Source of the DNA: Candidatus Aenigmatarchaeota archaeon
Lineage (GTDB): Archaea; Aenigmatarchaeota; Aenigmatarchaeia; GW2011-AR5
DNA length: 39,015 bases
Assembly: GCA_018304565.1 (NCBI GenBank)
Contig: JAGVVX010000007.1
Coordinates: forward strand, 1-39,015
Reading direction: 5' to 3'
The position numbers and the translations under genes were made by a program. The notes beneath the pieces are model-generated. The model ran no database searches. It saw only the letters and a list, made by a program, of their open reading frames with translations, and was not told the DNA's origin. Below are positions 6,477 through 32,944 of the stretch, piece after piece (within the stretch, counting starts at the first letter, position 1; each line of letters opens with the position of its first letter).

Positions 6477-7723
6477 ATGTTTATTTCCCTTAGCAGTTTC
6501 AGGTCATTTTTACAGTAGAAATTTCTGACGTCATTTATGCCATGCTTCAGCGCGATTGTTCTTTCAAGACCTAATCCCCACGCCAAGACTGGAACATCTA
6601 TCCCCAGAGGTTGTGTAACTTCAGGCCTGAATATACCTGATCCGCCCAGTTCTATCCACTCTTTTTTCTCTTCAAAGTACACTTCCGGTTCTGCGGACAT
6701 TTCAGTGTAAGGGAAGTATGCCGGTCTGAATCTTATTTTTTTGAACCCCATGCGTGTATAGAACTCCTTTAGATACCCAAGCAAATCACGAAAAGTAACA
6801 TTCTCATCGACAACAATACCTTCTACTTGTGTGAATTCAGGCAGATGCTTGTAATCCAGTGTCTCATTCCTGAAAACTCTGCCTATGCAGAAAACTTTTG
6901 CAGGTGGTTTTAACTTACTTAGTTCTCTAACAGAAACTGCTGTCGCATGGGTACGCATTACCGCTTTCTTCGCTACTTCCCTGTTCCATTTATACCCCCA
7001 GCCAGACGAGCCTGTATTACCGCCCTTTTCATGCGCTTCTCTGACCTCATTCACAACGTTTTCTGCCGGTAATTTGCAGGATTCCGGGGTTTTCATATAA
7101 AATGTATCTGCCATTTCGCGTGCAGGATGATCTTGCGGCTGATAAAGCGCGTCGAAATTCCAGAAGCTTGATTCCAGCAAAGGTCCCCTGGCTTCCTTGA
7201 AACCAAGATCAAAGAATATGTTCCTTATCTTCTGTATATAGAAAGAAAGCAAGTGTGTTTTACCCGGATAGATTTTAGTGCCCGCGAGTTCGACATTATA
7301 AGGCTTCAGTTTTACTTGTTTCCAATATTTAGTTTTTATTAAATCTTCAGTGAGGTTTGCAACTTCTTGGCCTGCGAGTTTCTCAGCTTTCTTTACAGCC
7401 GTTTCTCTCTGTTTTTCTATGAGTTTTCTTTGTACTAGTACATCAAGCAAACGGTTTTCTACATGATCCCCGCCTGCAAGTTTCTTTAACGCTTCGTACT
7501 CCGGTATATTTTTCGGATTTCTGACAAGCGCAAGCTTGTTGTTTTCTATTTTAATCCAGCCATGTTTTTTCGCCCATTGCAAAGCTATGGAGAAGTTTTC
7601 TACCTTTTCCTTTGCTTCAGTGAAATCTACAGGCCCGGACATAAGCAATTCAATTAAACGCATTTCAGGCAGTCCATACTTGAGATAATTCCTTCCTTCA
7701 TCAGTCAGTGTATATTCTTGCAT
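6470..7723 (-). CDS. pheS: Phenylalanyl-tRNA synthetase alpha subunit
   Basis: 417 aa. Class II core with motif 2/3-like segments (FRNETLDYKHLPEFTQVEG; GLGLERT). Directly upstream of pheT. Confidence 0.9.
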   Translation of the reverse strand: MQEYTLTDEGRNYLKYGLPEMRLIELLMSGPVDFTEAKEKVENFSIALQWAKKHGWIKIENNKLALVRNPKNIPEYEALKKLAGGDHVENRLLDVLVQRKLIEKQRETAVKKAEKLAGQEVANLTEDLIKTKYWKQVKLKPYNVELAGTKIYPGKTHLLSFYIQKIRNIFFDLGFKEARGPLLESSFWNFDALYQPQDHPAREMADTFYMKTPESCKLPAENVVNEVREAHEKGGNTGSSGWGYKWNREVAKKAVMRTHATAVSVRELSKLKPPAKVFCIGRVFRNETLDYKHLPEFTQVEGIVVDENVTFRDLLGYLKEFYTRMGFKKIRFRPAYFPYTEMSAEPEVYFEEKKEWIELGGSGIFRPEVTQPLGIDVPVLAWGLGLERTIALKHGINDVRNFYCKNDLKLLREINMW

Positions 7724-11000: not shown

Positions 11001-11609
11001 CTAAGGCTTCATTCTCTGGATGATGTAGTAAGTTGCATCGCCTTCGTTGTCAACAACGGCCCAGAGCATACGTGCGCGGATGTTATGAGCCAGCCTTACG
11101 GAACGCGAAAGTTCCTGGAAAGACAGTGTGTAGTCCTCAGGCACGCAAAACACTATCCATTTTGTGTGCTCTTTTGCACTCTTTGGGCCTTTCTTAAGCT
11201 GTACACCACGTTCATAGACACGGAAATCGCAGCCAAACTTGAAGCCAGTCCGTACTAGAAGCCCGCGCTCTCTTAGGTCTTCGTAAACACGATAGCGCTC
11301 GGGAAACCTCCTATCCAGGTTCCGCGCATGGTCATATAGTTCCTGGAAATTTATCTGTTTCCCGCTTGAAAACACTCTTATTCTTCCTCGCTTAAGAAGC
11401 AGGCAGGCTTCGACCATAGCGAGTTCAAGCCTGTCGCCTATCTGCTTGCCATAGTAACCAGGCTCATAAATCTTTTCAGACCCTTTCCATGCAACAACCT
11501 TGCTTTCTTCCAGCTGCGTGTCTATAATTTCCTTTATTTGTTCAGGTTCTACATAGTCCGGTTTATCTTCCCATTCTTCTAATTCCTTATTCTTTTTACT
11601 CATAATCAT
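11001..11609 (-). CDS. endA: tRNA-splicing endonuclease (EndA), short single-unit form
   Basis: 202 aa. C-terminal catalytic-domain signature RTGFKFGCDFRVYE, then EHTKWIVFCV and RSVRLAHNIR segments typical of archaeal EndA. Confidence 0.85.
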   Translation of the reverse strand: MIMSKKNKELEEWEDKPDYVEPEQIKEIIDTQLEESKVVAWKGSEKIYEPGYYGKQIGDRLELAMVEACLLLKRGRIRVFSSGKQINFQELYDHARNLDRRFPERYRVYEDLRERGLLVRTGFKFGCDFRVYERGVQLKKGPKSAKEHTKWIVFCVPEDYTLSFQELSRSVRLAHNIRARMLWAVVDNEGDATYYIIQRMKP

Positions 11610-13669: not shown

Positions 13670-14392
13670 ATGATTACTCAAAATACACCTCTTCTTAAAA
13701 TAAATGAAGATATTGCAGAGTTCGTTGGCGCTTTAATTGGAGACGGATATATTTACACTAACAAAAACAAATATATCATAGGATTTACTGGAAATCCTAT
13801 CACAGATAAAGAATATTATGAATATCTAAGAAGATTGATAAATATAGCTTGGAAAAAAGAAGTCAAAATAAAATTAAGAGGGAGAGGCATTAGAATTGTT
13901 ATTAATTCTAAGAATATAGTTAATTTTTTGATAAATGAAATACAAATTAAACACGGAATCAATAAAAGCGAATCTGTAGTAATACCAGAAGTCATGACCA
14001 AAGACTGGAGTTTGACTAAATTAGTAATAAGAGGTATTGTTGATACAGATGGCTCTGTTTTTGTTTCTAAAAAGCCCGGCATAGATATGTACCCTTCTAT
14101 AGAAATTACAACATCGAGCCCTGAATTAGCTTTTCAACTAAGGAATATCCTATTAAGCCGTGGTTTTAGAGTTGCGAAAATATGGAGTTATAAATCTAAA
14201 TTAAGTAAAAGAATTTCTTATAAAGTTCCTCTAAACGGACTTGAAAATGTTGGTAAATGGTTAAAAGAAATAGGCTTTTCCAATCCTTACAAACTGAAAA
14301 GAGCAAAAGAAATATGGGATGGGAGGGATTTGAACCCTCGACATTCCCGACGTAACACAAAAGTGTTATGCTCCACGGTTCCTGCTCAGTAG
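13670..14392 (+). CDS. Free-standing double-motif LAGLIDADG homing endonuclease-like protein
   Basis: Two LAGLIDADG motifs (FVGALIGDGYI and VIRGIVDTDGSV). Start taken at the internal ATG (MITQNTPLL). The last ~25 codons read antisense through the 3' part of the convergent tRNA gene. Confidence 0.85.
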   Translation: MITQNTPLLKINEDIAEFVGALIGDGYIYTNKNKYIIGFTGNPITDKEYYEYLRRLINIAWKKEVKIKLRGRGIRIVINSKNIVNFLINEIQIKHGINKSESVVIPEVMTKDWSLTKLVIRGIVDTDGSVFVSKKPGIDMYPSIEITTSSPELAFQLRNILLSRGFRVAKIWSYKSKLSKRISYKVPLNGLENVGKWLKEIGFSNPYKLKRAKEIWDGRDLNPRHSRRNTKVLCSTVPAQ

Positions 14393-14447
14393 GACTTCAG
14401 CTTCACATCTTTCGATCGTGTGCTCTCCCATGCTGAGCTACCATCCC
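14315..14447 (-). tRNA. Intron-containing tRNA, class II-like (long variable arm); tentative Ser(CGA) with ~50-nt intron at 37/38
   Basis: Minus strand: acceptor GGGATGG/CCATCCC+A. D arm GCTC-AGCATGGGA-GAGC. T arm GAGGG-TTCAAAT-CCCTC. The best anticodon arm is ACACG-AT-CGA-A|intron|T-TGTGT followed by a 15-nt variable arm. The isotype is uncertain: the position-26 spacing is awkward, and discriminator A is unusual for Ser. Confidence 0.65.
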
Positions 14448-14869
14448 TAATTAACTTCAAACGCCTTTTCAATACTCTTTCTCATATCAGGGGATATTTC
14501 AAGGCTCCTAAGCTCGTCTTTCGTTATCCACCTGTATTCTGTATGCTCGTTCGGATCTATCTTTACAGCAAAGCTGTCAGCTTGTATTATAAAATCGCTT
14601 TCAACAGAATCCTTTCCGGCATACTTGTAGTAAAACTCGTTGTATTTCTTGATTATTCTGATTTGTAGTTCCGTTTCCTCTAAAAACTCCCTTACAAGTG
14701 CTTCTTCGTCACTCTCGTTTCCTTCAACCCTTCCGCCAGGTATTTCCCAGAGATTAGGCCAAAGTACCCTTTCTTTTGTCCTTTTGACTACTAGCAATTT
14801 CCCTTTTTGGAACAAGGCACCACCTACTATTCTTGTTGCGGAAGCTTCCTTTCCGCAAGCGCTTTGCAC
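14447..14869 (-). CDS. Nudix hydrolase
   Basis: Nudix box GGRVEGNESDEEALVREFLEETEL. The track ORF (to 15016) has an N-terminal extension that is simply a read-through of a tRNA-like gene. The likely start is GTG at ~14869, or a nearby TTG. Confidence 0.75.
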   Translation of the reverse strand: MQSACGKEASATRIVGGALFQKGKLLVVKRTKERVLWPNLWEIPGGRVEGNESDEEALVREFLEETELQIRIIKKYNEFYYKYAGKDSVESDFIIQADSFAVKIDPNEHTEYRWITKDELRSLEISPDMRKSIEKAFEVN

Positions 14870-14890
14870 GTTTATCCTGTGCAAAGGGCT

Positions 14891-14998
14891 TCTCGAACCG
14901 CCGACCCTCACGTCTCTGTCCTGAGATTTATCTGTGTCCCGAAGAACTCCGTTCTTCAAGATAACAGCGTGATGCTCTACCTGCTGAGCTATCGAGGC
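14891..14998 (-). tRNA. tRNA-Asn(GTT)-like 5' portion (acceptor 5' strand through T-loop, with ~48-nt intron at 37/38) lacking any 3' T-stem/acceptor strand; split-tRNA half or relic
   Basis: Minus strand: GCCTCGA-TA-GCTC-AGCAGGTA-GAGC-A-TCACG-CTGTTA|intron|A-CGTGA-GGGTC-GGCGG-TTCGAG, then AAGCCCTTT... The expected CCGCC-TCGAGGC is not found in the following ~450 nt or elsewhere in the window by eye. Confidence 0.55.
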
Positions 14999-15020
14999 AT
15001 GACTATTAGTTTTCATAAGG

Positions 15021-15032
15021 AATATTTAAAAA
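15021..15032 (-). promoter_or_regulatory. TATA-like box upstream of the tRNA-Asn-like element
   Basis: Minus strand TTTTTAAATATT centred about 27-30 nt upstream of the tRNA-like 5' end. This implies the element is transcribed, probably together with the Nudix gene and the next tRNA. Confidence 0.4.
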
Positions 15033-32194: not shown

Positions 32195-32285
32195 GGGCTT
32201 GTAGTCTAGCGGCTATGACTTTTTATTAGTAGAATACGCTACCCTCACATGGTAGAGATCCCCAGTTCGAATCTGGGCAAGCCCA
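32195..32285 (+). tRNA. tRNA-Val(CAC) with ~18-nt non-canonical intron between D stem and anticodon stem (about 32220-32237, position 25/26)
   Basis: Acceptor GGGCTTG/CAAGCCC+A. D arm GTCT-AGCGGCTA-TGAC. Then TTTTTATTAGTAGAATAC. Then G-CTACC-CTCACAT-GGTAG-AGATC-CCCAG-TTCGAAT-CTGGG. Confidence 0.75.
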
Positions 32286-32944
32286 TACATTTTCAAATAC
32301 TTTCTTTTTGAAAGAGCTTGTTTTATCCGTTTTTTATTTTTGAATCCTATATTTACAATATAATTGTGAATATCTTGTTTTCTTTGCAAGGATATGCGCC
32401 ATATAACCCTTCTTTTATAATCACGTTTTTTATTGGTAAAAGAATATATTGTAGGAGAAAATCCTAACATTTTTAATAGAGACTTTATTTCGTAAGCAAA
32501 AATTTTGTTTGTGCAGTTCCACGATAAAATCAGATAATAACTATTACCACTTTCACGCCAATATACAGTCCCATCTGTATCAATTAAACCACGTAAAAAG
32601 TTTTTACCACATATTTTACTTGAAAATACAAATTTAGGTACTCTAAGTTTATCTAACTTTGGGCCTTTTGGAAAGCCAGTCTTTAATAAAAGATTGTAAG
32701 TATTTTTACAAGCTATTCTTAATTCAATGACATTATAAGGATCGCCTCTTTTTACAATACGAAAAATATGGAAATCAAAAACTTTCGCATATAACTTCTT
32801 GACGTAATTGAAATATTGTTTCTCGGTGCTCGATGTTCCGTATCCGACTTCATTTGGTTTAGATGCAAGCCAACCATCACCTGCATGAATACCACATAAT
32901 TCAGCATAGTTTCCTATTAAGCTTCTATCGACTAATCTAACCAT
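32213..32944 (-). CDS. Free-standing double-motif LAGLIDADG homing endonuclease-like protein (paralog of 13670..14392)
   Basis: Motifs ELCGIHAGDGWL and FLRGLIDTDGTV. The last ~24 codons read antisense through the tRNA-Val body (stop in the D-loop). Confidence 0.85.
   Translation of the reverse strand: MVRLVDRSLIGNYAELCGIHAGDGWLASKPNEVGYGTSSTEKQYFNYVKKLYAKVFDFHIFRIVKRGDPYNVIELRIACKNTYNLLLKTGFPKGPKLDKLRVPKFVFSSKICGKNFLRGLIDTDGTVYWRESGNSYYLILSWNCTNKIFAYEIKSLLKMLGFSPTIYSFTNKKRDYKRRVIWRISLQRKQDIHNYIVNIGFKNKKRIKQALSKRKYLKMYGLAQIRTGDLYHVRVAYSTNKKS
32263..32287 (+). repeat. Direct repeat copy 1 (inside tRNA-Val: T-stem to 2 nt past the discriminator)
   Basis: CAGTTCGAATCTGGGCAAGCCCATA, identical to 33018-33042. 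Confidence 0.85.

Follow-up and report, generated by a model that had tools for sequence, protein, structure and literature searches.

On the minus strand of the window (the whole stretch of 39,015 nucleotides that was analysed, a complete contig from a groundwater MAG of Candidatus Aenigmarchaeota, a DPANN lineage), a Nudix hydrolase gene is preceded by a tRNA-Asn(GUU)-like element that has a promoter-like box, an anticodon-loop intron and the beginning of a T-loop, and that then runs directly into the reading frame. This arrangement raises the question of whether the element is one half of a split tRNA, the relic of a lost gene, a leader of the Nudix mRNA or an ordinary tRNA gene that is incomplete in this record. 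To answer it, the locus was compared with nine sibling contigs covering the site (L001-L004 and L006-L010), which are independent assemblies or samples of the same population and are 99.5-99.98% identical to the window. The TopoVI-A protein of the window was found in identical form on 14 further metagenome contigs, obtained at Rifle and from other groundwater.

Structure of the tRNA-Asn(GUU) element and of its intact counterpart

The anatomy given in the original prediction, with the 5' parts of a tRNA-Asn, a 48-nt intron at 37/38 and an end at TTCGAG, was confirmed on the minus strand, where nucleotides 14998..14892 correspond to tRNA positions 1-59. Exon 1 (positions 1-37; 14998..14962), which was read directly and equals that of the intact sibling genes, has the layout GCCTCGA-TA-GCTC-AGCAGGTA-GAGC-A-TCACG-CTGTTA and supplies the acceptor 5' strand, the D arm, the anticodon stem 5' strand and CUGUUA. 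It is followed by intron 1 (48 nt; 14961..14914) at the canonical position 37/38, enclosed in a strict hBHBh' (bulge-helix-bulge, BHB) motif with the outer helix UCACG/CGUGA, the central helix CUGU/ACAG, the 3-nt bulges UAU and AGA and the inner helix CUUG/CAGG. According to the pairing table, all helices of this motif (UCACG-CUGU-UAU-CUUG ... CAGG-ACAG-AGA-CGUGA) are paired within the window itself, and removal of the intron from the sibling sequence led to a cloverleaf. Exon 2 (positions 38-59; 14913..14892), assigned by direct reading and from the spliced product, comprises A38, CGUGA, the variable loop GGGUC, the T-stem 5' strand GGCGG and UUCGAG.

The 3' strand of the T-stem and acceptor stem, which had been reported as missing, was indeed absent from the 39-kb window. 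The query CCGCCTCGAGGC gave only a chance-level match in it with up to 2 mismatches, and the G-U-tolerant pattern YYGYYTYGRGGY gave 0 matches; no separately encoded 3' half was found within these 39 kb, and exact, 2-mismatch and G-U-tolerant searches ruled out a cis or permuted 3' exon there. At standard stringency, ARAGORN did not find tRNA-Asn here with default or intron settings, and a relaxed run (-ps80) returned only low-scoring calls, none of which was the tRNA-Asn gene. Two other candidates were rejected. A "full-length" tRNA of 64 nt called with Rfam at 14935-14998 (32.8 bits) was an artefact in which intron sequence is borrowed as the T arm and acceptor 3' strand. A giant Nudix-containing intron with the 3' exon beyond it does not fit either, since the next tRNA is tRNA-Phe with its own matching acceptor stem.

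The sequence that follows TTCGAG, from 14891 onward (AAGCCCTTTGCAC...), continues into the Nudix reading frame and had been described as intron-like. Comparison with the siblings identified 14998..14834 of the minus strand as the leading 165 nt of a tRNA-Asn(GUU) gene of 190 nt. Nucleotides 14891..14834 are the first 58 of the 69 nt of a T-loop intron (59/60) whose 3' end is absent, as determined by alignment to L001 and L010, with the boundaries set from the BHB and the spliced product; folds of this remnant contained two hairpins (14886..14862 and 14858..14836). In the intact allele, intron 2 occupies 69 nt (or 64 nt) between G59 and a 3' exon in cis and is bounded by a BHB motif. On the 5' side, the T-stem strand GGCGG is followed by UUCG of the central helix and by the bulge AGA, cut between AG and A; on the 3' side, GGCA-CGAA, in which CGAA forms the central helix, is followed by the bulge AUU, cut between AU and U, and then by CCGCC. 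The same arrangement, T-stem-UUCG-AGA ... CGAA-NNU-T-stem, was found in the siblings and in the relatives L011, L025 and L031, with the inner helix paired except for one A-A, whereas in the window copy the 3' arm is deleted. The 3' exon of the intact gene consists of 14 nt, T-CCGCC-TCGGGGC-G.

When both introns were removed in silico from the sibling sequence, a 73-nt product was obtained that ARAGORN called as tRNA-Asn(GUU), with a standard cloverleaf and a T-loop, UUCGAGU, equal to that of the intron-less tRNA-Asn genes of relatives. Because the intact version splices to a perfect 73-nt tRNA-Asn, it may be concluded from the sequence comparison that what follows TTCGAG is a real BHB intron at 59/60, so the "intron-like" description was correct. 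In the predicted fold of the intact 190-nt precursor, a cloverleaf, the anticodon and T arms are extended (-74.8 kcal/mol, z = -4.15), whereas the acceptor, D and T arms were not formed in the fold of the equivalent 190 nt of the window. Likewise, a cloverleaf could be assembled from the exons of the intact sibling allele but not from those of the window copy, in which the 3' exon is absent.

The TATA-like box that had been noted upstream was also recovered. It lies at 15032..15021 on the minus strand (TTTTTAAATATT, direct reading), ends 22 nt upstream of G1 and has its centre approximately 28 nt upstream; it is a putative promoter kept in many relatives, since L011, L013, L016, L021, L024, L025, L031 and L054 each have a TTTTAAATA-type box about as far upstream of tRNA-Asn. 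A gene for the tRNA-splicing endonuclease EndA is encoded in the window as well (202 aa; 11609..11001, minus strand), with Pfam matches to tRNA_int_endo_N (E-value 2.5e-15) and tRNA_int_endo (3.4e-28). For the intact gene, the sequence, the structure potential and the conservation were demonstrated. By analogy with the established archaeal tRNA splicing pathway, it would be transcribed from the TATA box, both BHB motifs would be cut by EndA, and the three exons would be joined by a ligase, which would yield the standard 73-nt tRNA obtained by in-silico splicing.

The locus belongs to the archaeal family of multi-intron tRNA genes with BHB motifs, and the window copy is a truncated member of it. 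In ARMAN-2, pre-tRNA-Cys(GCA) has a 59/60 intron and pre-tRNA-Pro(GGG) has introns at 53/54 and 59/60, and multi-intron tRNAs are found in Thermoproteales (PMC3239211; PMC4090602); the 59/60 introns were validated experimentally by in-vitro cleavage with ARMAN-2 EndA (PMC3239211). Like these systems, the intact allele has introns at 37/38 and at 59/60 in the T-loop, each with a 3-4-3 bulge-helix-bulge, its genome contains an EndA gene, and splicing would give a standard cloverleaf. Unlike them, it belongs to Aenigmarchaeota and to the isoacceptor Asn; its T-loop intron is 55-70 nt long, compared with 13 nt in ARMAN-2 tRNA-Cys; and in the window copy, which is non-functional, the 3' exon is lost together with the 3' arm of this BHB.

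Nature and origin of the 36-nt deletion

The junction at which the window departs from the intact gene lies at 14834/14833 on the minus strand, where 36 nt present in all sibling assemblies (9/9 contigs) are absent from the window contig. The missing nucleotides are CGGCACGAAAT (the last 11 nt of intron 2), TCCGCCTCGGGGCG (the 14-nt 3' exon), a CT spacer and ATGTTGAAA (Nudix codons 1-3, ATG TTG AAA). Around the site, the siblings read ...TTCCGCAACA-CGGCACGAAATTCCGCCTCGGGGCGCTATGTTGAAA-AGAATAGTAGG..., in which the middle block, CGGCACGAAATTCCGCCTCGGGGCGCTATGTTGAAA, comprises the 36 nt without a counterpart in the window. In comparison with L001, this deletion was the sole indel in 21 kb, with a junction ambiguity of 1 nt (a single A), and its flanks share no repeat or microhomology of more than 1 nt. 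In this contig, one deletion of 36 bp took away the 3' side of the T-loop BHB, all 14 nt of the 3' exon and the start codon of Nudix, and the remnant therefore cannot fold as a tRNA.

Considering that the 3' strand was found nearby in the sibling contigs, the element is what the original prediction had foreseen for such a case, namely, an ordinary intron-containing gene. We put the probability at approximately 90% that it is an ordinary two-intron tRNA-Asn gene truncated by a single 36-bp deletion, rather than one half of a split tRNA or a leader that has evolved as such. The option of a decayed tRNA was right in one respect, because the 3' exon is lost from this record, through one private 36-bp deletion. 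It did not hold as regards a relic: over the retained 165 nt, between G1 and the break, identity to the intact gene of the sibling assemblies is 100%, the deletion is the only difference, and the remainder of the gene is that of the functional copies, with no accumulated substitutions or indels.

The proposal of a tRNA-Asn that is split in the T-loop and joined by trans-splicing, with its 5' half here and its 3' half elsewhere in the genome, was refuted by the sibling assemblies, and such a split is extremely improbable. In favour of it are the promoter and the intact BHB intron of the 5' part, the lack of the 3' strand in the 39-kb window and the occurrence of split tRNAs in other DPANN and in Crenarchaeota. 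The intact gene does resemble the split tRNAs of Nanoarchaeum equitans, Caldivirga maquilingensis and Staphylothermus (PMC4090602) in that a promoter-bearing 5' part is followed by BHB-forming non-tRNA sequence. However, the sequence after G59 is the 5' part of a cis intron, and its 3' arm and the 3' exon follow in all siblings and in L011 and L012. The BHB partner, GGCA-CGAA-AUU, stands in cis directly downstream in 9/9 siblings and in these two relatives, so there is no trans pairing to invoke. Unlike the known split tRNAs, the element has its partner in cis in all other assemblies of this population, its split state is conserved in no relative, and its 3' half is not seen in the window. The break falls within the intron rather than at a BHB-forming trailer and also removes three Nudix codons, unlike a designed split. 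The T-loop is not among the known split positions, which are 37/38, 29/30, 25/26 and 30/31 (PMC4090602).

The deletion was found in no record other than that of the window. The 189-aa protein bearing the junction was a singleton, from the window contig only, in a collection of 5.8 billion protein clusters; MLKRIVGG is retained in the other members of the Nudix cluster (12/12, representing approximately 28 contigs, drawn from ENA, Logan, JGI and NCBI), and longer read-through forms of 201 aa contain the deleted HEIPPRGAMLKR. A homologue search returned no other junction-bearing protein, and a scan of JGI metagenomes with a pattern fitting both alleles found the intact copy only. The deletion allele is thus 1 among approximately 30 contigs from many samples and assemblers. 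In addition, it takes both the end of a tRNA and a conserved start codon, and the tRNA-Asn gene that it hits is presumably single-copy and essential. Many assemblies are also fragmented at this polymorphic locus. The deletion is private to the database record of the window and most likely arose as a local assembly or consensus error.

It is possible, with a smaller but appreciable probability, that the deletion is instead a rare, real but defective allele, carried by part of the aquifer population; the tRNA-Asn gene would then be dead and Nudix would lack its start codon, a state either tolerated through a second tRNA-Asn copy or transient. As to the identity of the element, this is a sub-case of the truncated ordinary gene and differs only in that the deletion would exist in cells; whichever origin is correct, the element is a truncated ordinary gene. 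The junction is clean: as no repeat longer than 1 nt is present there that could cause a graph mis-join, a simple de Bruijn-graph collapse is not the explanation, which leaves room for a real allele. The locus is also polymorphic, with two intron-2 haplotypes (L001-type and L002-type), many contigs break here, and there is precedent for population heterogeneity at archaeal tRNA loci (PMC3293823). On the other hand, a real allele would be a singleton among all these contigs, would cut off the end of a tRNA-Asn gene that is probably the sole one in a small DPANN genome (a single copy being the expectation) and would also lose the Nudix start, which is conserved as ATG in L001 and L012 and as GTG in L011.

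Fragments of tRNA genes arise via population heterogeneity or the activity of mobile elements, as exemplified by tRNA-Thr-F of Caldiarchaeum subterraneum (PMC3293823), and prokaryotic tRNA gene fragments have been mistaken for genes (PMC9897764). The window copy is similar to tRNA-Thr-F in being a metagenome-derived 5' tRNA fragment that differs from the rest of the population. Unlike fragments of this type, it is accompanied by no mobile element, recombinase or duplication, and its flanks are colinear with only 36 bp missing. The remnant of an att site of an integrated element was rejected for the same locus, since the window is colinear with the intact allele on either side of the junction and a duplicated tRNA segment is absent.

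Were the deletion a real segregating allele, the locus could be a snapshot of tRNA disruption, in which a transcribed 5' fragment and its intron are fused in frame to Nudix while tRNA-Asn comes from another source, providing raw material for a split tRNA or a leader; this is improbable.

The Nudix gene and its tRNA neighbours

In the window, the Nudix hydrolase gene extends from codon 4 to the stop (14833..14447, minus strand), its native start being deleted; the sibling form, MLKRIVGG..., has 131 aa. The start in the siblings lies 2 nt after the tRNA discriminator base (G73). The NCBI record MBS3053011.1, "NUDIX domain-containing protein", corresponds to a 189-aa ORF (15016..14447, minus strand) whose first 58 residues are the translated tRNA gene and introns. 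Judging by its sequence, this N-terminal extension is a gene-calling artefact, and both the 189-aa ORF of the window and the 201-aa ORF of the L001-type haplotype can be regarded as read-through artefacts.

That the truncated tRNA now serves as a functional 5' leader or N-terminal extension of Nudix, either as the 189-aa fusion or as a leader processed by EndA or RNase P, is very improbable. In its favour are the in-frame deletion, the ORF that runs from the ATG at 15016 into Nudix and the annotation of a single protein at NCBI. The deletion length is a multiple of 3, so the long ORF stays open, but the chance of this is 1/3, and the L002-type haplotype breaks the ORF anyway: it has a 5-nt indel in intron 2 that disrupts the read-through frame, which indicates that the frame is not under selection. 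The extension is a mere translation of tRNA and intron. All Nudix homologues found in the homologue search have 131-137 aa, and in the native 131-aa form the Pfam match to NUDIX covers the sequence from residue 3 onward. Furthermore, the fold of the remnant is without acceptor, D and T arms. RNase P and RNase Z need an acceptor stem, so a remnant without one is not their substrate.

The idea of a tRNA-like leader that releases the Nudix mRNA is partly relevant to the intact allele, with the reservation that the tRNA there is genuine and not a mere leader; the remnant, as noted, has no acceptor stem. Downstream of Nudix lies a tRNA-Phe(GAA) gene (14447..14315, minus strand; Rfam 43.4 bits) with three short introns (14416..14402, 14394..14380 and 14372..14344). 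With intron options, ARAGORN miscalled it as tRNA-Ser(CGA); in view of such miscalls, comparison with relatives and manual BHB analysis were used instead. The exons were set by comparison with intron-less relatives, and splicing gives a 74-nt product with a cloverleaf structure. Nudix stops at a TAG whose G is also G1 of tRNA-Phe (a 1-nt overlap), and in some haplotypes the Nudix ORF reaches three codons into tRNA-Phe. A T-rich tract after tRNA-Phe (14314..14296, minus strand, direct reading), a putative terminator, is the likely end of a tRNA-Asn/Nudix/tRNA-Phe transcription unit. The topoisomerase VI A and B genes neighbour the tRNA region.

The geometry of the intact allele, with Nudix between two tRNAs, a 2-nt spacer on one side and a 1-nt overlap on the other, one conserved TATA box and one T-tract, suggests how the gene could be expressed. 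The Nudix ORF is probably co-transcribed with the tRNAs from the tRNA promoter and freed by processing of the tRNA ends, and the intact unit would plausibly release the mRNA in this way. Punctuation of transcripts by tRNAs is known from mitochondria, and tRNA-like elements by mRNAs are processed by RNase P and RNase Z. The intact allele is similar in that Nudix is bracketed by two tRNAs behind one visible promoter, from which processing may be surmised. It differs in that an RNase P cut at G1 of tRNA-Phe would take the last base of the Nudix stop codon. In several relatives, the gap between tRNA-Asn and tRNA-Phe is only 2-10 nt; with the two genes nearly adjacent there, Nudix looks like an insertion into a tRNA pair.

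Introns of tRNA-Asn in relatives and interpretation of such records

The closest representative in the searched collection with one genome per species was L011 (JACPDL010000002.1), with approximately 96.5% identity over most of the locus; L012 is from a related species (90% TopoVI-A identity). Both, which are the two closest relatives found in other genomes, likewise have the 59/60 intron, then the 3' exon and, next to it, the start of Nudix, and L012 contains exactly the CCGCC-TCGAGGC that the original prediction had called for. The 59/60 intron was also present in L025 (70 nt) and L031 (32 nt). Across L001, L025 and L031, the inner helix of intron 2 differs in sequence but retains its pairing, and compensatory changes are seen in the T-stem (GGCGG/CCGCC, GACGG/CCGUC and GUCGG/CCGAC). 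Contiguous tRNA-Asn genes with 0-4 introns were found at more than 25 loci of Aenigmarchaeota, and a split state is conserved in none of them.

Disrupted tRNA genes are frequent and under-predicted in DPANN (PMC5829648), and neither 59/60 introns nor multi-intron tRNAs are new to DPANN and Thermoproteales. With the intact locus, Aenigmarchaeota join the lineages in which T-loop (59/60) and multiple BHB introns occur. The apparent novelty of the window copy disappears because the sibling assemblies carry the 3' exon in cis. The signal of a "split tRNA in the T-loop" consists of 36 bases missing from one MAG contig and calls for caution, as does MBS3053011.1, in which a tRNA gene is translated as the N-terminus of a Nudix protein. 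Such records could mislead tRNA censuses of DPANN MAGs, where tRNA-Asn would be counted as missing, or give rise to claims of split tRNAs. The remaining interest of the locus lies in this warning on MAG-level artefacts and annotation and in the intron-rich tRNA biology of the lineage.

As to the latter, the compared loci show an unusually fast turnover of introns in one tRNA gene among close relatives. A mobile intron family appears to occupy different tRNA positions in this lineage, and Aenigmarchaeota may have the most intron-rich tRNA genes known. A tRNA-Asn gene with four introns was observed in L030.

Introns of tRNA-Asn in relatives and within the population

A core of approximately 45 nt (ATCCCTTTCTTG.AAGAAAGGTCT...CCCAAAGAAC) was found to be common to tRNA-Asn introns of different species, being carried by D-loop introns in three loci of relatives (L012, L017 and L035) versus T-loop introns in two others (L025 and L011). 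Because this core recurs at different tRNA-Asn positions in different species, sequence comparison suggests a mobile family of bulge-helix-bulge (BHB) introns, and the putative mobility would be comparable to the intron transposition reported for Thermoproteales. The T-loop intron of the window is a diverged relative.

The number of introns in tRNA-Asn was also considered. A standard 73-nt tRNA-Asn was obtained from the relative L030 (CAYJRV010000008.1, about 7290-7484) only after four intervening segments of 21, 42, 29 and 30 nt were taken out of the D-loop, the anticodon stem, the T-stem/53-54 region and 59/60, respectively. Three segments had to be removed from the tRNA-Asn of L012 (about 7151-7396). 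According to a 2011 paper, the maximum per archaeal tRNA gene is three introns (PMC3239211), and no report of an archaeal tRNA gene with four introns was found in a limited literature check.

The population of the window is polymorphic in the T-loop intron, the second hairpin of which occurs in two coexisting haplotypes (14836-14858, minus strand, with equivalents in the contigs L002, L007, L008 and L009 from other assemblies). The haplotypes have TTGCGGAA/TTCCGCAA versus GCTTGC/GCAAGC, and hairpins are formed by both. Many assemblies have contig breaks at or near this locus (L005, L008, L009 and several contigs of 600-850 bp).

The Nudix ORF between two tRNA genes

The Nudix ORF (14447-14833, minus strand; 11356-11754 in L001, a contig of the same population) lies exactly between tRNA-Asn and tRNA-Phe. 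It is separated from tRNA-Asn by 2 nt, and its stop codon overlaps G1 of tRNA-Phe or, in some haplotypes, reaches 10 nt into that tRNA. RNase P cleavage at this G1 would deprive the stop codon of its last base. Among the loci compared (L025, L031, L037 and L069), several relatives have a tRNA-Asn/tRNA-Phe gap of only 2-10 nt with no intervening ORF.

The public annotation at this site is MBS3053011.1, a 189-aa "NUDIX domain-containing protein" (14447-15016, minus strand). Its N-terminal extension, like that of the 201-aa calls in other assemblies, is the translated tRNA-Asn gene with its introns and is thus a gene-calling artefact, which conceals the tRNA-Asn gene.

Introns of tRNA-Phe, EndA and LAGLIDADG ORFs

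The second tRNA of the locus, tRNA-Phe(GAA) (14315-14447, minus strand), contains three short introns: two of 15 nt, at 30/31 and at 37/38, and one of 29 nt near 44/45. When these were removed in silico, the product was a clean 74-nt cloverleaf, the core of which was identical to that of intron-less relatives; the tRNA-Ser(CGA) called here by ARAGORN was rejected as a mis-call. The outer helix is nearly absent from the BHB of the first intron, and this motif is therefore relaxed.

A sole gene for the splicing endonuclease EndA was visible (11001-11609, minus strand; 202 aa, N-terminal and catalytic domains), although the local tRNAs carry non-canonical, partly relaxed BHB introns. DPANN alpha4-type EndAs with an extra loop were reported to accompany heavy tRNA disruption (PMC5829648); the combination observed here would fit that report.

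Two LAGLIDADG_3 ORFs are convergent with tRNA genes, one of 240 aa (13670-14392, plus strand) with tRNA-Phe and one of 243 aa (32213-32944, minus strand) with tRNA-Leu (32195-32285). Each overlaps the 3' part of its tRNA gene by approximately 75 nt. LAGLIDADG ORFs likewise follow TopoVI-A or tRNA-Asn in the relatives L022 and L024, and these ORFs may represent a tRNA-associated mobile endonuclease.
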